Source: Eledone cirrhosa (lineage: Eukaryota). Taken from it: a DNA stretch of 64,000 bases. Below the pieces are notes generated by a model. That model worked only from the letters and a program-made list of their open reading frames with translations, searched no databases and had not been told where the DNA came from. The DNA lies in NCBI GenBank assembly GCA_964016885.1, contig OZ024759.1, forward strand, positions 17,360,001-17,424,000, read 5' to 3'. The translations under genes were made by a program, and so were the position numbers. Shown piece after piece: positions 22,939 through 61,800 of the stretch (its first letter is position 1; every line of letters begins with the position of its first letter).

Positions 22939-23035
22939 ATGGAAGTTTACCAAACCGAAAACCATTTTATTATAGTGGATGGAACTCATTTACTTTGGTG
23001 CAGTCGGATAGACGGATCTTTAAAAGCTGAAACAG
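22939..23035 (+). CDS. INPP5F: Phosphatidylinositide phosphatase SAC2, coding exon 1 (MEVYQTENHFIIVDGTHLLWCSRIDGSLKAET)
   Basis: Resembles the human INPP5F N-terminus as recalled (MELFQAKDHYILQQGERALWCSRRDGGL); good Kozak ACCATGG; donor ACAG|gtgggt; 97 nt. Confidence 0.88.
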
Positions 23036-23759
23036 GTGGGTAATTCCCTTCGAAATGTTTGGGTGTAAAAAAAAAAAAAAGACGGGGACTGTTTTTAATT
23101 TATCGAATGTTACAGTTAATTAACTGATTATCTAGTCGTATAAAATAGTTCGAGGGATTTAATATTGGTTAACAGGGCACCAGTGTTTATATATATATAT
23201 GTATCAAGTTTGGTTTAGAAACCGGTAGAGCTTGATATAACGGGAAGAAAAAGTGTTGCTTTCTTGAAAATATACAAACATAGTGATACACATGTAGACA
23301 CTTAGACACATTTTCTGAAAAAAAAAAAAGTAGCAATGACTACGAGCTTTCCGTGAAAGACTTCATTTAGTAAAGGCTTTCGTCGAAGTTTCGAAGTAAC
23401 TGGCACCTTTTTTTTTCAGAAAATTAATTCTATACTTGGCTGACATGTATTGAGTTGTCATTCATATCTTGTTTGAACGATTTATGTATACAAAGTTACA
23501 TAATATATATTTATCACACAACGAGTGCGTATATTTATATATATGTGTGTGTGTGTATTTCACGTACGTGTGTATACATATACATTAGGTGTACGTGTAT
23601 ATGTATATACACGTATGTATAGGAATGTCTGATTGTCTATTTATTTATCTATCTTCTTCCTTATAATTTGTTGAAAATATATGTAAACAAAGATTAAAGG
23701 CTATATCCTTAGTATACAAGTATAGGCACGTATTATCTATCTATCTATCTATCTATCTA

Positions 23760-47540: not shown

Positions 47541-47960
47541 CTGTCACCCTCCTCCTTTCTTTCATTGCTTAACAATCCTAGCCTTTTCCCTCCTTTTTTT
47601 CTCAATTAAGCACTCAACATCATGTGTTTTCTTCCAAATGTAATTTTTATCATTTCATAGTGGAGTGTACAAAATAATTAAAATCAGTCCGTTAATTCAA
47701 GTGTTTGTAGCATCTTTATTAGTGGACAGATCATTGTGAAAATTTGTAGTATTAGGTTGATGCAAAATTGTTTCTACTTTTGGCACAAGGCCAGCAATTG
47801 TCCTAATGCATTACTGGTGCTTTATTTTATCGACCCATATAAGGAGGTCAGCACTTCCAACTTAGTACTAATTTGGTCTGTGAGGACTCGTCCAGCCCTT
47901 ACTATCAGGGAAAACTGACATTAAATGATAATAATGAATCTATTTTCTGATGTTTTTTAG

Positions 47961-48038
47961 GTAATTTTTTCCCACCTGTGACTGCAATTTGCATTGGGAC
48001 TGTTCATGGTGTTGTTGGAAAAGTAAAAGCTCACACAG
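47961..48038 (+). CDS. INPP5F: SAC2 exon 2 (GNFFPPVTAICIGTVHGVVGKVKAHT)
   Basis: Resembles ICLGLVEGVIGKIQLHS; ttttttag/gtatgt; 78 nt, phase 1-1 in frame with exons 1 and 3. Confidence 0.85.
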
Positions 48039-49155
48039 GTATGTCATATTTTTCTTAATCTTTATAGCACCCAGTTCATTCTGTAAAGCAACAGAGCTGG
48101 TGCCATGATAAAATGCATCCAGTATTCTCTGTAACATGGTTGGTATTAGGAAGAGCATCCAACTGTAGAAACCTTGCCGAGCAAAGTGTATCAAGTGCAT
48201 GACAACTTTCCTTGTGCTGGTGCCATGGTAAAATGATTCCAGTAGACTCTGTAAAGGGTATCCAACCCTAGAAACCATGTCTAACAAAGGGGTGAGAGGA
48301 TGTTTCAGTTGCCAAGGACATTACAACTTTCCTTGTGCTGGTACCATGTTAAAATGATTCCAGCACACTCTATAAAGGGTATCCAACCCTAGAAACCATG
48401 CCTAACAAAGGGGTGAGAGGACTTTTCAGTTGCCAAGGACATTACAACTTTCCTTGTGCTGGTACCATGTTAAAATGATTCCAGTACACTTTGTAAAGTG
48501 TTTGGTGATTGGAAGGGCAACCAGCTGTAGAAACCATGCCCAAACTGGAATGCATGTAAGAGAGACTTAACTCCTGACCTGAGAGGGAGGACAGTAGCTT
48601 TGATTAAGTACTAATTTGTCCAATCCATGCCAGCATAGAAAAAAAAAAGATGTTAACCCTTTAGCATTTAGATTACTCTCTATTTACTATTATATTTTTC
48701 ACAGTAAACACTTTACCTCCTAATATCGAATCTACAAGATTTTGGTATTATTTATTTTTAGAACAATACCTTAACATAAGTATGAGCAGCCAGTTACAGC
48801 TGGTCTGAAGAGATAAAGGTGGGAGAATTCTGGCTGGATATGGCTGGTTTAAATGCTGAAGGGTTAAATGATGATGATGATGATGATGTTTGTGTTGTAA
48901 TATTTCTCACATAGAGCAGTGGATTGGCAGTATTGGTAGAGGGTCAGATGCTATGCTTTGCAGCATAGTTACGGCCCTTTACGGTCTGAGTTCAAATCCT
49001 GCTGAGGTTAACTTTGCCTTTCATCCTTACTAGGTTGATAAATAAAGCACCAGTAATGCACTAGGGTTGATTTAATTGATTTTCCCCTCCCCTTCAAATT
49101 GTTGACCTTGTGCCAGAAACAATTATTATTTTTTGTTTGTATTTTTATTAACCAG

Positions 49156-49292
49156 ATTCAGAATGGAAGTTGATTTTGATCAAAAGTCAAAACCCTGTTG
49201 GTCAAATTCTTGAGACTCATGACATCTACCAGATCAATAAAGTTGCCATCCTCAGTTTATCTGGGCTAGAACCAACAGAACTAGGACTGTCG
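49156..49292 (+). CDS. INPP5F: SAC2 exon 3 (DSEWKLILIKSQNPVGQILETHDIYQINKVAILSLSGLEPTELGLS)
   Basis: Resembles DLPWWLILIRQKALVG...KIAVLSLSEMEPQDLEL; accag/gtaagt; 137 nt. Confidence 0.88.
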
Positions 49293-50542
49293 GTAAGTCT
49301 GTCTACCTTTTGATATCTTCTTGTCTCATTAATTTTAATTGTAACTTGTACAAGGTTGCTTGCTTAGTTCTTTGAGGACACGTCTTTTAATAGCTGTGTT
49401 TTTTCTAACTTGTTTTCAAAGAACTGGGCAACTCTGTGCATTAGTTATTGTTTTATAGGTGGAACAAGTAATATTTGTCACACACTCTGTGATCCCCTTA
49501 ATGGCTATCTGTTCTCATTTGTATCTCCTCTTCTTTTTGGTCTTAATCTACTAATCCATTTTGTCTTATTTTAAGACTTGAAAGAAGAGGAAGCACAAAA
49601 TAGCACAGATAGTCATTGAGGTCACAGAATATGTGATGAAAGAAATTTGATGAACTAACGAATAACTAGTAATAAAGATAAAGATATATTTGGTTTCTTA
49701 TCAAACTGTGTCTGGCATGTTTTAGCTCTACCTCCCAACTCCATAACATTGCATAGCTTAACTCTTTAGCATTTACATTACTTTATATTTACTATTGTAT
49801 TTTCATGGTAAAGGCTTTACCTCACATAAGTATCTCACATAACATTTACATTACTCTATATTTACTATTGTATTTTCACGCGAAAGGCTTTATCTCACAT
49901 AATTATCGCCCATAATGTCAAAGCAATGAGATTTTGATGTTATTTATTTTGAGAACAATACCTTAATATCAGTATGAGTGGCCGGTTACAGCCAATTTGA
50001 ACAGAAAGAGGTGAGAGAATTCTGGCCGGATATGGCCAGTTTAAATGTTAAAGGGTTAACATGTATCCTCACTATCAACTGGTACTCCGCTGGAGAATGA
50101 TTGTCAATGCATCTGTGTTTCCCTGAGGTATGGCCTCCTAATCTACAAGCACAAATGTTGCTGTGGACCTTCTGTGGACGCTTTTAGCCTCCACCCACTG
50201 TCATGTCATCCCGGTTCCAGTCATCTTCCATGCTATGTCGCTCTCAATGAGATTATTAAACATGGCTTTAATGCAGCTGGTTTTTCCTTGCAGCTTGAGC
50301 TGGTGGATTTGACTGAGAGGATGGCAGAAGGGCAGATTGCATCACAATCTTCCTGTTCCATGGTGGTAAGCTCATCTGGAATGTGATGTACTGTGACACT
50401 TTCTCCAACAACAACCTGGTGAATTCGGTGATAGACTCAGGTTCCATTAGCCGATAAGTTAAAGATCACAAGTTGTTGAAATATCAGCTCTTTTCCTATA
50501 AGTTTCAGGGTGAACCGGTACTGGTGTAAACTTCTAGTCTTG

Positions 50543-50760
50543 TGAAGGTACATAGCTAAGTGGTTAGAGCATTGGGCTTGCAATGGGGATGTTGTGTGTT
50601 TGATTCTCAAACTGGGTGATGCATTGTCTTTGAGCAAGACACTTTATTTCACATTGCTCCAGTTTACTCAGAAATGAGTTGGAATGTCACTGGTGCCAAG
50701 CTGTATCGACCATTGCATTTCCCTTGGACAACATCGGTGGCACGGATGTTTATGCAGGTG
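50543..50760 (+). mobile_element. tRNA-derived SINE family 2, representative
   Basis: AGTGGTTAGAGCATTGG head and CTTGAGCAAGACACTTTATTTCACATTGCTCCAG body; copies near 5110, 9669, 11895, 19420, 21640, 34790, 52640, 62035. Confidence 0.7.
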
Positions 50761-51894
50761 TGAGGAGCCACATATATTCTTGCCATTAGAAAAAAAGCAA
50801 AAATGAATACTTCACCTTCGAAAGAGGGATGACTCAAAAAGAAGTGTGTTTTTTTGTCCCTGAGCAACTTTCATACTCATTATTACTGGGACATTTCAGT
50901 GCATCTCCTTTGCTATCCTCTAGACCAAGTTTTTCAAAGTGGGCACTTCTGCCCCCCAAGGGGAGTTGAGAAGATCCAGGGGGTTGCTGAGGCCTAAGAG
51001 GATAGTAGTGATGATAGAATAGTATATTAAATATCAAATGATACATATTATATATAAATATAGTAAAATAAAAAATATATATTTATTTATTTATTTATAC
51101 ATAGTATATATTATAGTATATATTATAGTATTTATTATATAAGGTGGTGGATTGGCATTATTGGTAGAGGTTCGGACGCCATGCTTTGCAGCACAGTTAC
51201 GTCCCTTTACGGACTGAGTTCAAATCCCGCTGAGGTTAACTTTGCCTTTCATTCTTACAGGGTCGATAAAATAAAGTACCAGTAATGTACTGAGTAATTG
51301 CTGGCCTTGTGCCAAAAGTAGAAACAATTATTTATTATATATAAATTAATGATTTTATTTATATATTATTTACAATTTGTGTGGAGGTAGGTCTCTGTGG
51401 AAATAGGGTTGGAAGGTGTGTGTGTGTTGGGGGGGGGGCGCTGAGGGTATTACATGGCTGTGACGTGGGCGGTGGCCCCAAAAAGTTTGAGAATCTCTGC
51501 TCTAGGGAAACGCTGTCTCCATTCTGTCCACCGTGACCATGCAGCAGCTTATACATGGGGTTCTGTACATCAATACTGTTTGGTCTTGTATCATTGAGTG
51601 AGGTAGCATTGGTGTAGGTTGCTAATATCTATGACAGTTGTCAACAAAGCAAACACTTATATATTACCCTGATTTGTAAGGATTTGTTCTAGATTAATAT
51701 AAAGCTACTGAGAGAAACAGAAAGATAGAAAAAAAGTGAGATGTAGAGTAATAGGATATAAAAGAAATATACTATATATATATATTTATATATATATACA
51801 CACACACACACAGTTAAATATCACTCTCTTTAATATATATACTTTATATATATATATATAATTTAATTATGTAATAAACAACATCAGACAATTA

Positions 51895-51965
51895 TTCCAT
51901 TTAGCAAAGGTTTCACGAAAGCAGACGAGCTCAAGAGACGTCTGAAATCGCTCATCAGAATGAAA
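51895..51965 (-). ncRNA. Type I hammerhead ribozyme, family A (stem III mismatch)
   Basis: TTTCATT-CTGATGA-GCGA..CAGACG/CGTCTG..TCGT-GAAAC CTTTG CTA-AATGGAA. Confidence 0.6.
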
Positions 51966-52058
51966 ATTTATTACATAATTAAATAGCTCTGTAGCATACA
52001 TAGAGCACTCTCGCTTCCTTTACTCTTCCTACGGAAATACTTCATATATATATATATT

Positions 52059-52097
<39 letters not shown>

Positions 52098-52104
52098 ATA
52101 TACA

Positions 52105-52135
<31 letters not shown>

Positions 52136-52173
52136 ATATTAATAAATGGAAACTATATTTTTAAAACCATAAT

Positions 52174-52238
52174 TATTTTATTATATATATTTCAAGGGCT
52201 ACCAAGGCAGTCTTGGTGCGCTTTCATCAGATAAAATA
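52174..52238 (-). ncRNA. Minimal type I hammerhead ribozyme (mirror copy)
   Basis: Reverse-complement copy of 52338-52402 with intact CTGATGA/GAAA core. Confidence 0.72.
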
Positions 52239-52337
52239 CAAGATTTGTTTTATAAATATTGACATAACCGTGGAAAAACAACCTTGACGGTTGAAAGTTC
52301 GCTGTTGAAAGTTTGTTTGTTTATAAAACAAATCTTA

Positions 52338-52402
52338 TATTTTATCTGATGAAAGCACACCAAGACTGCCTTGGTAGCCCTTGAAATATATATAATAAAA
52401 TA
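52338..52402 (+). ncRNA. Minimal type I hammerhead ribozyme
   Basis: TATTTTAT-CTGATGA-stem II (AAG..ACCAAG/CTTGGT..CTT)-GAAA-TATATA-TA-ATAAAATA; 8 bp perfect stem I. Confidence 0.75.
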
Positions 52403-52774
52403 ATTATGGTTTTATAAATATAGTTTCCATTTATTAATATATTGAATATTTACTCCAGATTCTGTTGAGTGCTTTATATCAGTTATAAACTTTTAAGCTT
52501 GTTGGAATCCCACAAATTAAATATATGTATATATATATATAGGAGACGATCGACTTTCGTCAAATCGGACCGAGGGAACAATGTTTCCGTTGGTCTTTCC
52601 AATTGCTAATACTATCTATCGGTCGCAACTCCAGGTAGAAGGAGCAACGTGAAATAAAGTGTCTTGCTCAAGGACATAACGCATCGCCTGGTCCAGGAAT
52701 CGAACTCACAACCTTACGATTGCGAATCCAATTCTCTAACCACTCAGCCACACGCCTTCACAAATATAAAAAGC

Positions 52775-53270
52775 TGGGACGATTTGATAAATTCCGACCT
52801 TACACACTTACACCTCTCCAAGACAATGCCACTGGACCGAGATCTTTGGTGCTACACAGTAATACAGAAGACCCGCCTTGCCTAAGTACAAAGCGAAACC
52901 TACAGTCAGTAGGCACCTCCAAACCAAAAAGACACCCCCATCCCACTACCCCTACCCCCACCCCCATCTACACCACCCCTTTCTCTGTAAAGTTATGTTG
53001 GTGCCACAACATCCAGTCCTAAATAGGAGGTTGTGTAGGTGTCATGACAAAAAACACACAGTCCATGCTGTAATGTGGCCGTGTCGGTAACATGGTAAAA
53101 ATCTCCCAGTCCACACTGTAAACGTGGTTGGTGTTAGGAAGGGCATCCAGCCATAGAAAACCCGCCAGGCAATCCTATACGAGCAAGACAACCAATCCTG
53201 TCTTACGTGGGACAATTCCTGTCAAAACCCATGCTAGCATGGAAGCTAGACATTAAACGATGATGATGAT
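52775..53270 (+). mobile_element. RTE LINE 3' end
   Basis: WDDLINSDLTHLHLSKTMPLDRDLW...KTRLA plus 3'UTR and (GAT)n tail. Confidence 0.8.
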
Positions 53271-53281
53271 TATATATATAT

Positions 53282-53479
53282 TAGAAAAAGAAGCTTTTGC
53301 ACTATTTTTGACTAAAGAAATTTTAGCACCTGATGGTGGGGTTTTAAAACCCTCTAAAAATGGAAAAAGATGAGTATTGACGTCAATATTCATCCTTTTC
53401 TATTTTTAGAGGGTTTTAAAATCCCACAATCAGGCTAAAATTTCTTTAGTCAAAAATATGGCGAAAGCTTCTATTTCTA
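53282..53479. repeat. ~200 bp palindrome centred on TATTGACGTCAATA
   Basis: Arms reverse-complementary; homologous to 57864-58073. Confidence 0.88.
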
Positions 53480-53519
53480 CTAAATTTCAAACACTGTTTA
53501 AAAAAAAACTTTTTACTTA

Positions 53520-54253
53520 TCTATATACATAAATGGCAACTCCTGTCCTGTTTGTTTGTGAACCTAAAACTCAAAAGCTACCTAACCGGTCTTGATGAAA
53601 CTTGACACGTGTGGGGCTCATGCCCATTTGATTTCTTACGTATATTTCATTTTAATCAAAGGGTTCCCCGGGGACTCAAACCCCCACTGAAAATTTTTTC
53701 CCTTCGATTTATATGAAATTTAAACCATAGGTAAATGACAAGATATGATGCCTATTCACAAAATTTCAGCAAATTTGAATAATATTAAGACACCCTAATG
53801 GGGGTTAAACACCGTATAGTGAAAATTTTGGTCAATAAATGGAACAAGATTTCACGAACTCCTCCTATGGTTTTGGTGATAGACCCCCATAACCATATAT
53901 ATTCTGAAACTACATTGCCCAGGGCACTTGGATAATTATAAAACCCCCCTTCGATTTATATTAAATTTAAATTATAGGTAAATGACAAGATATGATGCCT
54001 ATTCACAAAAGTTTTGAATTGATATTTTTAAAAAAATTATTTACAAACTAAGAATAAGATTTAATAATGTAATTTTGATTTAATATATTTCAAAAAATAA
54101 TATTTTCCAATTTTCCATCCATTACATTTTACATTGAGTAATATTGAAATGTAGAGTTTTTTTTCATAAATTATATCACTGATTTAAAATCAATCATCAT
54201 TTTCTTACAAAAAAAATGTGTGGAACGCAGCAAGGCGCGGGTAATTCAGCTAG
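53520..54253 (+). mobile_element. Non-autonomous Helitron
   Basis: A|TCTATATACATAAA 5' end, GC-rich CGCAGCAAGGCGCG near the end, CTAG|T; internal ~63 bp direct repeat. Confidence 0.65.
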
Positions 54254-54327
54254 TATATATATATATATATATGTGTAATTCAGCTAGTATATATATATAT
54301 GTGTAGTATATATATATATGTGTAAAG

Positions 54328-54411
54328 ATAACTATTTCATCTGATGAATGAGCTGGATGTTTCTGTAAGGATCATCTAGTTTCCTGAAACCTTTGGTAAT
54401 GGAAGAATTAT
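54328..54411 (+). ncRNA. Type I hammerhead ribozyme, family A
   Basis: TTTCAT-CTGATGA-long stem II (GAGCTGGATG/CATCTAGTTT)-GAAA-CC TTT GG-TA-ATGGAA; GUA cleavage triplet. Confidence 0.68.
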
Positions 54412-55018
54412 ATTGTGTTGTTTATTATGTAATTAAATAAATAAATCTATATACACATACACATGCACCCAGTGAGTTAATATATCACTCTTTAATATAT
54501 ATATGTATGTATACACACATACACTGAATCTACATCTTACATTAATATATATTCACACATACACATTGTTTATATTTAGCAATAAACATCCTATTTCAGA
54601 TATCTCTCCCCCCTCTCTCTTTCTCTCTCCCCCTCTCTCTTTCTCCCCCTCCTCTCTCTCTCCCTCTCTCCCTTCCCCCTCTCTGTGTCTCTCTCTCTTT
54701 CTCTCACAGAGTAGGGAGTTGTTGTAATATACAGAATTAGGTTAAATACACAAGGTTTTCATCTGTCGAAATGTGCATATTCTGCAAGTAAAAAAATTGA
54801 GAATTTCGCCTAATTTTGTGTATATGTAGTAGACAATTAGGACCCAGCAGCAAGAGCTCAACCACCTGGCCCTAACTCTCTACTATATTTACACTCTATT
54901 ATCCCAAGTATCGAGTGCTCTCTTGAACAATGGTCTTACTAGTTTAAACTGGTAAAATCTCTCTGTCTCCCTCCTCTCTCTTCCTTTCTCCCCCTCTCTC
55001 TTCCTCTCTCTCCTCCTC

Positions 55019-55049
<31 letters not shown>

Positions 55050-56100
55050 GCGTGTGTGGTGCATTGACAGTCATTAGAATGCTGGATAGAAAGTTTTGTG
55101 GGAATTGCTCCAGTTATCTTACCTCTAAGTTTAACCCTTCAGCATTTAAATCAGCCATATCCGGCCAGAATTCTCTCACCTCTTTCTGTTCAAACCAGCC
55201 ACAACTGGCTGCACATACTTATGTTAAGGTATTGTTCTCAAAATAAATATCAAAATTTCGTAGATTTGATATGTTAAATAATTATGAGATAAAGTATTTA
55301 CCATGAAAATACAATAGTATATATAGAGCAATGCAAATGCTAAAGGGTTAAAGTCAATTTTTTCATTGTCAAGTTAAATAAAATATTACCAGTTGATTCT
55401 TCCTCTATATCTCTTTCTCACTTCCTTTCTATCACCCCCTCCCCTCTCTCTTCCCTTCTCTGGAAGAAATTGACTATATTCCAACATGGAGAGGGTATAT
55501 AATCTGCCAAATGTAAAATGGCCAAGACATGTATGTCTCAGCAGCGCTCTGATGACCCTATCAAGATTTACAAGTCCATATACTCACACTAACACAAACA
55601 CACACACATACACATAAAATCTTCTACCCGTAACCGCTGATGTTGTCATAGGGGTGCCACAGTGACATAGTATTTCTTGGGCATTGTTGAAACCTAGTGG
55701 AACACATCTCTTGAATACAGCTGATTTCTTTCAGAAGAAGCGAGAAAGAGATATAGAGGAAGAATCGACCCTAGTACTGGACTAGTACACTTTTTTATTG
55801 TCTGTGAAAGGGTGAAAGATAAAGTTGACCTCAACAGGATTTGAACCCAGAGTGCAGAAAGCCATAACAAATACAGCTAAGCATTCTATTTAACATTCTA
55901 ACAAAACTGCCAATTTACTGTCTCATATCTAAAGATGCACACCTTTACATGCACACACAAAACCAGCAAAGAATTACCAATGCTGACATGTAGACATTAA
56001 TAAAACTGAAGTGAAAACTTGTAATGTGTTAAGAGACCTTGGATGTAGGTTTATTTATATATTACTTATTTATCTATTTATTTGTTTGTTTATTTTGCAG

Positions 56101-56238
56101 CCATGTCCCAAACATCACTCTTTAAACAAAGAGAAACAAGGTTTTCAAAGCTCATCACTGACACAGACTAGTAGTAAACCTTTGCAGAAGACATGGAACT
56201 CTGTCAAATCAGCAGTTGAGAACGTCAAACCAAAGAAG
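56101..56238 (+). CDS. INPP5F: SAC2 exon 4 (PCPKHHSLNKEKQGFQSSSLTQTSSKPLQKTWNSVKSAVENVKPKK); gene continues beyond window
   Basis: Resembles LCKKHHFGINK...LLKTFTHIKSNVSAPNKKK; ttttgcag/gtaggc; 138 nt phase 0-0. Confidence 0.85.
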
Positions 56239-58886: not shown

Positions 58887-61800
58887 CGTCTGTATGTATG
58901 TATCATTTATTTAAATACATCTATGATGTTTGATTAACATTGCCATATCCCCGTTGGCAATATTTCAAATAGGAAAGGTAAGAAAGGCGTTAGAGATGTG
59001 AGGTTAGAGGGAAACACAGAAGACCAAACAGATTAGTAAGACAGAAGTGTCAAGATTTTTTATTCCCTGTCATCATTTACAACTGTTCACTATTTATATT
59101 TTATAAAGCTTTTGGCAAACTTACATAATAAAATAATCTTTACTGTGGGGTATATTTCAAAGTTGTAGACTACTATGTTAGTAAGACTTGAAGTGTCAAA
59201 ATCTCTTTCCACTCTCATGTTTACAATTGTTTAGTATTTCATCATGATCATCATCATGACCATGATGATGATGATTATCATCATCATCATTGTTTTTTCG
59301 TCAACTTCTCCATGCTGGTATGGGTTGGACGGGGCGGGACTTTTTGAGGCAATATTTTACAGCTGGGTGCTCTTTCTGACATTAACTATTTTAACCCTTT
59401 AGCATTTACATTACTCTATATTTACTATTGTATTTTCATGGTAAACACTTCATCTCAGATAATTATCTCACATAATATTGAATCTATGAGATTTTGATAT
59501 TTTTTTTATTTTGAGAACAATACCTTAACATCAGTATGAGTGGCCAGTTATGGTTGGTTTGAACAGAAAGAGGTGAGAGAATTCTGGCCAGATATGGCCG
59601 GTTTAAATGCTGAAGGGTTAATCACTTCTTACAATGCAGGGATACAGTGTACTTATTCTAAACAAGACATGTTTTCTAAAGCTGGGGTTGATTTAACCCT
59701 TTAGCATTTAAAGTTCTTGCATCAGGCTGCCTGTGAACCTTCACATGTCGCTTCAGTCCTTTTATAGATCAACATTCTTTGCCACATTCATATATTTATA
59801 TTTTGCAATACCATGGAGATCATAGTTCACTGGTTCTCTCTGAACATGGCTGCAACCGTGACTCCTGAGACCAGATATGCTCAAACACACCTTTCAGCAC
59901 ACAGGATGAACACCAAGTCAATATATATATACATACATACACATACATACAAAGGGAATAGCACTAATAAAGAGATGACACACATACACTCACACATATA
60001 TATATACATACATACGCACTATACAAATATATCTACACTATATTACATGGTTTAACATGCTCCTTCAACTGTTGTTACACCAATCTATTTTCATTTTCCT
60101 GTAACTTTCACACAATGTCCCTCTCACTGATACTCCGGTCAACAGCAACTGATAAACACCTCATCCTTCGACTCATTTTCATTTATTTTTTCTTTCATTC
60201 ACTCACTCTATTTATTTGAAAGCCTCATACTTCCACACTATCTCTTTAAAGTGACAGCAAATAAATACAAAAAGCTCATTATTATATATATATATTTCCC
60301 ATGTTTACTTGCCTCGTTGCTAAGCAGTTATGTCTAAAATAAAATGTCTAACCAAAAAAAAAAGTTGTTGGTTTTAGATTGTGATGCATTTTCTGAAGAT
60401 GGAAGAAGACTTACCGTCATAAATATCATTTAATGTCAGTCTTCCCTGCTAACAAGGGTTTGATGGGTTGTCAGCAGATCAAGTTGGTACTCAGATTGAA
60501 GTACAGACCTTACAAATAAGCAAGGAGCCTGCATCTTGCTTCTCTATGTTCCTCCACTCTGCCAATTACTCAGTCAGGCCATTTGCCTAAAGCTCACTCA
60601 CATACAATCCCATATACTAGTGAGTGCATTTTATCATGCCACCAGCATTAGGGAGGTTGTCATATCTTTGACACAGGTGAAGTATTCTTCTAACCCTTTG
60701 CTTGGATGATCTTATCACCAACCACTTTACAGTGTGTACTGGATATGTTTATCATGTAAACCACCAACATTGAGGAGTTTAGCTGAAGAGTCTGCCTAAC
60801 CTTTTGTTTGGCAAGTTTTCTACAGCTGGATACTCTTCCTGTCACCAACCACTTTACAAAGTATACTGGCTGTGTTTATTGTGTAGATCAGCACTAGTGG
60901 GTGGGAATGTCTTTTATGCAATTGAAGAATAGCTGGATGCAGTTATTACATGATAAATGCACTCAGTTCACTCTGTAAAGTGGTTTGTGATAAGTGGCAC
61001 ATCCTATCTTAGAAAAGATGTCAAGGGGATTTAAGTACTTTTCAGCTGTATCAAAGACATAGCAACTTCTGTAGTGCTCGTGCCTTTATAAAATGCACTT
61101 GGTTGAGCATAAGAATGTATGTAAGAAAGATGCAGGCCCACAGCTCCATCTGAGATTTCAGTAGTGTGGAAGCATGTAGGCAAAATGCAAGCTCTTGGCC
61201 CATCTGAGTGGTCAGTAGCTCCACTTGAGTACTGACTTGATTTGTGATAACTCTTCCAAACCTTGCTATCAGCAGGGAAAATAGACATTAAATGAAGGAC
61301 CTTCAATGTTTGTAATGTTTGCATTTTTGTGTATTTATACTTTGAATATATGTTACGGCGATGATGATAGAGAAACATCTGTTTCACTATGCTGATATAT
61401 CGACAAATCCTTTTAGTTTTTTCTGACAGATTTATATAATATTGTTCAACCTGAACGAGAGCCTGGTTTTCAGGTAAGTTTGTGACCTTGAGCTCTGAAT
61501 GAGAAACTCACCAGGTGTGCTGTTTGCATTATTTAATCTTTAGGATGCCGATATAAGAAGCTATTCAAATTTCGTACAATTTTACTTCACTTTGCTCCCA
61601 AAAAGAACAAAGAAAAAACAACCCCACAAAATTATATTCTCCAGTTTAAACTTAGAAGTAAAATATGAAATGATAAATGTTGCTCAAAACATTTTCTATT
61701 TTTCTCAGAGTAATATAGTTTGTATGAAGTATTGTAAGGTATGTAATTAAGAATATATTTCGGAAGCTGGTACAATGTGAACAGGAAATACAATAATGGA

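Follow-up and report, generated by a model that had tools for sequence, protein, structure and literature searches.

A fold-back with paired hammerhead motifs in an INPP5F/SAC2 intron of Eledone cirrhosa, likely a head-to-head pair of truncated pLTR copies of an abundant Penelope-like element

Background

Hydra-clade Penelope-like elements (PLEs) with a C-terminal endonuclease (EN+), including Hydra-1_Obim of Octopus bimaculoides, are described with a single ORF for RT and GIY-YIG, a hammerhead in the pseudo-LTR (pLTR), (TA)n targets and the marks RW[K/R], DKT, a CxCx5C linker, CxxC and CxH (PMC8557442). An inverted 5'-truncated copy, as in Penelope-13_HM, one-sided tails and a (TA)n bias in PLEs are reported in the same source, and the origin of the inverted ends and one-sided tails is stated to be unresolved both there and in PMC11167929. 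An initiator-like TCACT was reported in rotifer pLTRs, and antisense self-priming was proposed for the inversions (PMC3846280). In vitro, nicking and extension took place on both target strands, from two internal start sites that set the limits of the tail, with uncut RNA as the main substrate; hammerhead cleavage was seen solely with protein and was dispensable for insertion (PMC11167929).

The hammerheads of PLEs have a long bulged helix II, a small palindromic helix III and predicted dimer activity (Cervera and De la Pena 2014, PMC4209133). A single PLE motif did not cleave and dimers cleaved at a low level; pairs lying 100-700 bp apart on opposite strands were reported, as were scattered motifs related to truncated PLEs (PMC4209133). 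Non-LTR retrozymes are non-coding, 200-400 nt long and PLE-related, with a type I hammerhead, and consist of head-to-tail tandem repeats yielding circular RNA (PMC7229834; bioRxiv 10.64898/2026.07.22.740005). The literature on PLEs already includes truncated pLTRs in inverted orientation, tails on one side only and hammerhead pairs on opposite strands. Neither Hydra nor hammerhead is mentioned in the main text of a 2026 octopus repeat annotation, which does count Penelope families and whose library may include the family considered here (PMC13282606). No paper on this family was found in the literature on octopus hammerheads or Hydra elements, nor in that on twin priming or end pairing in PLEs, with few subscription journals covered.

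Results

The fold-back and its host intron

An inverted repeat was delimited in the window (the whole 64-kb stretch of DNA that was analysed), with arms at 52124-52256 and 52320-52452 that are 133 nt long including TA margins, 96% complementary and separated by a gap of 63 nt. The segment 52132-52530 folded at −204.3 kcal/mol (z −29.4), and none of 100 shuffles folded equally well. The inverted arms of about 125 nt, the tail of about 80 nt and the (TA)n flanks that a sequence-only reading had described were all present on re-analysis.

The left arm (52132..52304, minus strand) follows a (TA)n-rich target tract at 52044..52131 and is an inverted pLTR copy with 91% identity over 182 nt to the 5' pLTR of locus L127; it starts at the tail-less proximal end of the family and stops about 10 nt before the CCACTATCC site. 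The right arm (52320..52444, plus strand) is a direct 5'-truncated pLTR copy ending at the same proximal end. It continues into a tail (52445..52524, plus strand), placed between the proximal and distal family ends by comparison with family copies and L127, and then into the right (TA)n tract (52525..52540). Right arm and tail together were 92% identical to the L127 pLTR over 210 nt. The tail of full elements runs about 55 nt further, up to the ORF start, and the window copy is short of a few bases of the usual end. The element is non-nested, the left arm having upstream sequence absent from the right and the right arm having a tail absent from the left. A reading of the 63-nt gap as an unrelated spacer was rejected, as 52257-52304 is further inverted pLTR sequence carried by the left arm only. 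The remaining 52305..52319 is a junction filler, and 52304-52313 repeats the 10 nt of 52290-52299, which from its sequence is likely the result of end-joining by re-priming. Three contig sets from one sample had loose (TA)n ends at 52440 and 52449, corresponding to the proximal end; they are silent on expression.

Coding exons of SAC2 were mapped by tblastn to 22939-23037, 47960-48039, 49155-49292, 56100-56238 and 61420-61473, all on the plus strand. As the third and fourth of these flank the site, the fold-back lies in coding intron 3 (approximately 49293..56099, plus strand), the position originally assigned to it. The gene name was taken from an O. bimaculoides SAC2 protein with 90% identity to a downstream exon; an hSac2 domain search gave a single weak match about 0.9 Mb away, so the name INPP5F/SAC2 rests on that protein and on the exon mapping. 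The 18-codon exon 61420-61473 is present in the O. bimaculoides SAC2 isoform, was unmatched by two other homologues and is possibly alternative. SacI-domain and weak hSac2 exon matches on contig C20 (17.47-18.36 Mb), 0.57-0.9 Mb downstream on the same strand, suggest that the INPP5F gene is very long or that the assembly contains a break.

Other repeats were noted nearby. A different, very abundant repeat (52541-52760) directly follows the right (TA)n tract and also adjoins family copies in L083, L110 and L024. A near-perfect palindrome at 53290-53470 (centre about 53381) belongs to another fold-back repeat family; related sequence gave 11 matches in the fetched loci, and no protein similarity was found between the palindrome and the PLE set.

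Hammerhead motifs in the window

The type I hammerhead core (CUGANGA, GAAA and NUH with helices I-III) was present in both arms. The right-arm motif (52338..52402, plus strand, sense to the INPP5F pre-mRNA) consists of an 8-bp stem I (52338-52345 / 52395-52402), CUGAUGA (52346-52352), stem II (52353-52382), GAAA (52383-52386) and a 2-bp stem III with an AUAU loop, with a predicted cut after A52394. In the left arm (52174..52238, minus strand), CUGAUGA starts at 52230 and the predicted cut lies at 52182/52181. A descriptor scan of the 64-kb window returned four motifs (both arms, 51958 minus and 54341 plus) against one in total over 10 shuffles; together with the sequence itself, it bore out the earlier hammerhead coordinates and the placement of one motif on each strand. 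Stem I may be extended beyond an internal loop by pairing of 52320-52329 with 52409-52418. Minimal PLE hammerheads have a helix I of 4-5 bp, whereas the present one has 8 bp and a possible 10-bp extension (PMC4209133). A covariance-model scan, one of the checks first proposed for the locus, matched no Rfam hammerhead family at E ≤ 5 in 50000-55000; the miRNA-type matches obtained reflect hairpins only.

In a single arm the hammerhead was not the minimum-energy fold (−14.3 constrained versus −18.6 free), and single arms folded barely better than shuffles (z −0.7 to −1.9). The monomer is predicted to be weak because the hammerhead fold lies 3-4 kcal/mol above the free fold and the dimer energy of helix III is only −3.2 kcal/mol.

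The two remaining motifs belong to a second hammerhead family, for which 271 exact matches of a related pattern were found genome-wide, some of them as fold-backs. The copy at 54335-54410 (motif 54341, plus strand) is sense to the INPP5F pre-mRNA and has an intact core, a 6-bp stem I and a 3-bp stem III. An inverted partner was not found nearby, the nearest relative having 80% identity over 84 nt at a distance of 2.4 kb. If either cuts the intron, these sequence features favour this copy over the fold-back. The copy at 51900-51965 (motif 51958, minus strand) has a stem III mismatch and lies 170 nt left of the fold-back; a TA tract lies between the two, and (TA)n-targeting elements are clustered here.

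Parent element and family size

A genome search with the arm and tail yielded 2,861 candidates, 40 of which were scored. The exact core pattern matched 6,131 times genome-wide and a 27-nt pLTR word 3' of the cut 28,212 times, with 0 matches for reversed controls. Among the 30 best loci, the outer ends were fixed and the middle varied from copy to copy. Generic GIY-YIG matches (150 scored among 10,598 candidates; 30 short and 20 long loci) were tried as coding partners and rejected, since they represented other PLE families and the arm occurred near them as unrelated neighbouring insertions. The true parent was reached through a 3.7-kb direct pair among the exact-pattern matches, and its RT segment gave at least 150 scored matches of 81-100% identity.

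The layout pLTR-ORF-3'UTR-pLTR was found in L111, L118, L127 and L132, in an element of about 4 kb (pLTR to pLTR 3.7 kb in L111 and about 4.1 kb in L127). Across 21 ORF loci (L111 plus 20 picked for long frames or high identity), the arm lay downstream of the ORF in 17 by script and was additionally visible in L126; a 5' pLTR copy was direct in 8 and inverted in 8. The (TA)n-targeted retroelement with a PLE-type hammerhead envisaged at the outset is thus recognisable, and the copies joined to an RT + GIY-YIG ORF that were to be sought exist in L111 and other ORF loci. The unit itself is not a stand-alone non-coding element as had been supposed; at 91-92% identity to the L127 pLTR, it is pLTR sequence of a coding PLE.

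The parent ORF encodes RT with a C-terminal GIY-YIG. RWR and DKT occur in L118, and RW and DKT are invariant in the ORF alignment (the Hydra-clade mark being RWK, with DKG changed to DKT). A CNCRIKSNC-type CxCx5C linker is present in L111, L117, L119, L121, L122 and L124; CxLC and SCKH occur in L118, whose linker has a deletion. The endonuclease, judged by eye, is without CCHH. GIY-YIG was matched by Pfam in L111 (E 1.5e-4) at 22.4 bits, slightly under the 22.6 cut-off. No significant match was obtained for the L118 protein in Pfam or for the ORF profile in PDB. The profile aligned to another PLE ORF of the same genome with 97.2% probability at 18% identity, and 31 ORF homologues (31-42% identity) were found, none with a PLE name. 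No fully intact ORF was found among the 21 loci, the 741-aa frame of L118 having an altered RT catalytic motif.

By these ORF motifs, and with a hammerhead in the pLTR and a (TA)n insertion bias, the parent is assigned to the Hydra clade as defined in PMC8557442. Its length of 3.7-4.1 kb exceeds the 'generally under 3 kb' of that source, which is a tendency and not a strict criterion; the octopus family is about 4 kb long with a 1.2-kb 3' UTR and tens of thousands of pLTR copies. In contrast to the described Hydra-clade elements, it has a stem III of only 2 bp with a self-complementary loop and a long stem II, and because the hammerhead sequence differs from that listed for Hydra-1_Obim (supplement row of PMC8557442, compared by eye) the parent is likely a different family. 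It is likely an undescribed high-copy Hydra family. The window copy is likely dead, having neither an ORF nor upstream pLTR sequence.

Further features were seen in passing. An octamer, ATTTGCAT, lies about 50 nt upstream of the CCACTATCC site in several subfamilies (L111:2624-2631, with equivalents in L081, L096, L100 and L127); we take it to be a possible promoter element (octamer motif). A sister hammerhead that shares stem I but differs in stem II, and has GCGC as its helix III loop, occurs at L066:25-95 and L075:4955-5030. Many other GIY-YIG PLE families are present in the genome (L061-L080; 10,598 first-look candidates); small hammerheads of their own and coding fold-backs occur in several of them (L066, L067).

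Ends, arm pairing and 5' boundaries

Copies of the family terminate at either of two fixed positions, separated by about 90 nt. The first 100 word matches on contig C1 comprised 65 tail-less ends, 33 tailed ends and 2 running into the ORF. Head-to-head pairs on this contig combined one tailed with one tail-less end in 18 of 20 cases (p=3.4e-5 versus independent ends), and the two exceptions trace to the pairing rule. Over all loci, 38 of 41 short head-to-head pairs (one mis-pairing of 690 nt, L019, included) had one tailed and one tail-less end; one was two-tailed (L020) and two were tail-less with an unaligned arm. The tail-less arm extended further 5' than the tailed arm in 25/38 pairs (8/17 outside the query-biased set), and in these 25 neither arm therefore contains the other. 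Arms were equal in 5/38 pairs, L170 being a perfect palindrome. Private alleles common to both arms of one pair and absent from every other arm were found in 8/41 pairs. For 38 of the 60 arms without an exact-word partner, the upstream sequence contained no inverted fragment; in 11 of these 38 the stretch examined was shorter than 4 kb.

In ORF-bearing copies the tail was on either the long or the short side, and inverted fragments lying wholly inside the tail occurred. Junctions were mostly overlaps of 0-8 nt or short fillers, and were private except for one shared by L009 and L011. Tail-only fragments, whose excess could indicate collision of two RTs on a single RNA, were by rough count not clearly more numerous than equally short tail-less fragments.

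In order to locate 5' ends, copies were mapped against 25 linear references (5/30 were skipped); all-against-all mapping was dropped because it was confounded by fold-backs aligning mutually. Of the 67 locatable ends, 22 fell within −2 to +8 of CTATCC, with at least 1 of the 22 a scoring artefact, and 0 fell from −9 to −39. Short copies often stop at the CCACTATCC site, about 85 nt upstream of CUGAUGA. Genomic 5' ends formed no peak at the predicted cut: 10 of 100 lay within 40 nt of the anchor, compared with counts of 6 and 12 for the two 40-nt bins that follow. This comparison is confounded by the TATATATA that precedes the cut, which resembles the target.

Variation in the hammerhead

Variation in 41 head-to-head pairs was split into alleles common to both arms, which were probably already in the source, and arm-specific ones, which probably arose later; 2 of 43 pairs (L019_14 and L210_50) were left out as mis-pairings. 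Shared alleles touched 2/12 core columns, once each, versus 34/67 other columns (Fisher p=0.056). Arm-specific changes averaged 1.0 per column in the core and 0.6-1.6 in stems I, II and the internal loop. Position N7, the single free position of CUGANGA, was T, G or A across pairs.

Across 19 subfamily representatives, 10/21 base pairs changed on both sides and 92.9% of cells were paired versus 33-55% in slid controls, with 0/500 shuffles reaching this, in a set of which 11/19 rows had been selected with a pattern that holds the core and stems I and III constant, and in which kinship inflates the shuffle test. The helix III loop was self-complementary in 19/19 (AUAU, GCGC or, with wobbles, AUGU), which dimer formation would require. 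Stem II folded better than shuffles (z<-1.65) in 40/55 distinct sequences. The sequence-only reading had made preferential conservation of CUGAUGA/GAAA or stem covariation part of its test; covariation was found, and core conservation by column alone was not significant (Fisher p=0.056 and 0.086). With N7 free, covarying stems and sparse shared alleles in the core, and arm-specific changes striking the core as elsewhere, the motif is probably preserved in active lineages and decaying in single copies. In the parent element the hammerhead probably acts as a genuine ribozyme, with help from dimerisation or protein.

An ADAR footprint was sought in the source alleles and not found, A/G and C/T variable columns being about equal (roughly 10 each by eye).

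Discussion

The fold-back is likely two head-to-head truncated pLTR copies of an abundant PLE and an ordinary insertion by-product. In more specific terms, we hold with good confidence that it is a 5'-truncated pLTR pair of the high-copy Hydra-clade family, likely made in one insertion with RT/GIY-YIG nicking both (TA)n strands and priming two cDNAs. In LINE-1 twin priming, both nicked strands prime on one RNA, which leads to a 5' inversion with a microhomology junction. In L1 the second site is opportunistic, with hardly any overlap between the two parts, whereas in the fold-back the sites are fixed and the cDNAs overlap. The anatomy of the fold-back resembles that of PLE insertions, with a head-to-head inverted truncated copy, a tail at one end only and an AT-rich target (PMC3846280, PMC8557442, PMC11167929), and 5' ends at an initiator-like site recall rotifer pLTRs with their TCACT (PMC3846280). 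Published PLE tails of 30-40 nt lie inside the ORF, whereas the tail here is about 90 nt and upstream of the ORF start. The near-strict rule of one tailed and one tail-less end and the non-nested arms were counted here; such counts were not found in the accessible text of PMC3846280, PMC8557442 and PMC11167929.

Twin priming on sense RNA, followed by run-off and end-joining, is the simplest reading given the end data and the two-strand nicking and extension from two internal sites reported in PMC11167929. With the RT/GIY-YIG protein nicking each strand of a (TA)n tract, two cDNAs would be primed on the element RNA. The two fixed end points may represent two internal RT start sites, with the tail as the interval between them, and the template would be an uncut sense RNA starting at the initiator-like CCACTATCC site. 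Priming close to the 5' end of this RNA would give two short run-off cDNAs, which host end-joining could link head to head. In the full proposal, a single uncut sense RNA would serve a dimeric RT-endonuclease as template for both target strands, each primed at its own fixed site, and the short fold-backs, in their thousands, would arise as double run-off ('strong-stop') products of priming within the 5' pLTR; we advance it tentatively, as a possibility falling a little short of probable.

The end pairing in 38/41 pairs, the non-nested arms and the pile-up of 5' ends at an initiator-like site favour twin priming on sense RNA over an origin of the inverted arm in the same element by self-priming (snap-back) of cDNA or antisense RNA with later one-sided deletions, as published for PLEs (PMC3846280), which we regard as unlikely. 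A snap-back copy must fall inside the first strand, so self-priming needs a later one-sided deletion to account for the window element and the 25/38 non-nested pairs; ORF-bearing tail-less arms joined to short tailed inverted arms (e.g. L131) would need such deletions at kilobase scale, and inverted fragments lying wholly in the tail also speak against it. The palindromic junctions or equal arms of 5/38 pairs, with L170 a perfect palindrome, are nevertheless as self-priming predicts, and the private alleles common to both arms in 8/41 pairs fit self-priming and twin priming alike; arm-to-arm conversion or two RNAs of one locus would also produce shared alleles. Twin priming is further weakened by L020 with its tail at both ends, by the possibility that one-sided deletions at the hairpin tip made nested arms non-nested, and by the fact that the RNA start site and template strand are inferred from DNA. 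A very improbable alternative is that the 400-nt unit is itself mobile, as a self-propagating non-autonomous fold-back retrozyme or MITE-like element. Many like-sized fold-backs with conserved outer ends and (TA)n flanks would suit it, but identical ends flank coding copies of 1-4 kb, and the length and sequence of the junction vary between copies. As junctions differ save in L009 and L011, a shared pair explicable by 6-nt microhomology, the fold-back does not appear to be copied as a unit. A head-to-tail array of the unit was absent from the loci examined. Non-LTR retrozymes are made of head-to-tail hammerhead units (PMC7229834; bioRxiv 10.64898/2026.07.22.740005), whereas the present locus is head-to-head alone, with one sense motif per strand, and direct repeats elsewhere flank the ORF.

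It had also been suggested that the antisense arm, made first, sequesters the ribozyme and thereby protects the host pre-mRNA while feeding ADAR or Dicer. Burial itself is predicted, with a mean pairing probability of 0.85-0.98 over seven growing prefixes of the plus strand, and very high levels of hyper-editing and numerous near-perfect dsRNA loci are reported for octopus (PMC5625713). Burial is not evidence of function, because the head-to-head geometry that follows from insertion alone yields it automatically; burial of the hammerhead of the window copy in a long hairpin would be a consequence of geometry. Retention of the antisense arm for silencing the ribozyme is, in our judgement, scarcely credible: the monomer to be silenced is predicted to be weak and PLE hammerheads cleave poorly alone (PMC4209133, PMC11167929), and arm-specific changes are as frequent in core columns (1.0) as elsewhere (0.6-1.6). 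With nearly all junctions private, no inverted fragment seen ahead of 38/60 arms lacking an exact-word partner, and an unpaired sense hammerhead at 54341 in the same intron, protection of the host pre-mRNA is unsupported. A-to-I editing of the fold-back is plausible by analogy with the hyper-editing described in PMC5625713.

Conclusions

Being one likely dead pLTR copy among tens of thousands, the single locus matters little. The at least 28,000 arms allow end pairing, nesting and 5' boundaries to be counted, bearing on twin priming versus self-priming, and the end-pairing rule is the part most worth follow-up. If twin priming is correct, head-to-head inversions and the one-sided tail would be explained without antisense self-priming, and the octopus Hydra family would record missing steps of Penelope transposition at genome scale. 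Each short intragenic fold-back is a predicted near-perfect dsRNA of 100-170 bp in a lineage with extreme A-to-I hyper-editing (PMC5625713), and the genome would have been seeded with ready-made hairpins, possibly a major class of ADAR substrate.
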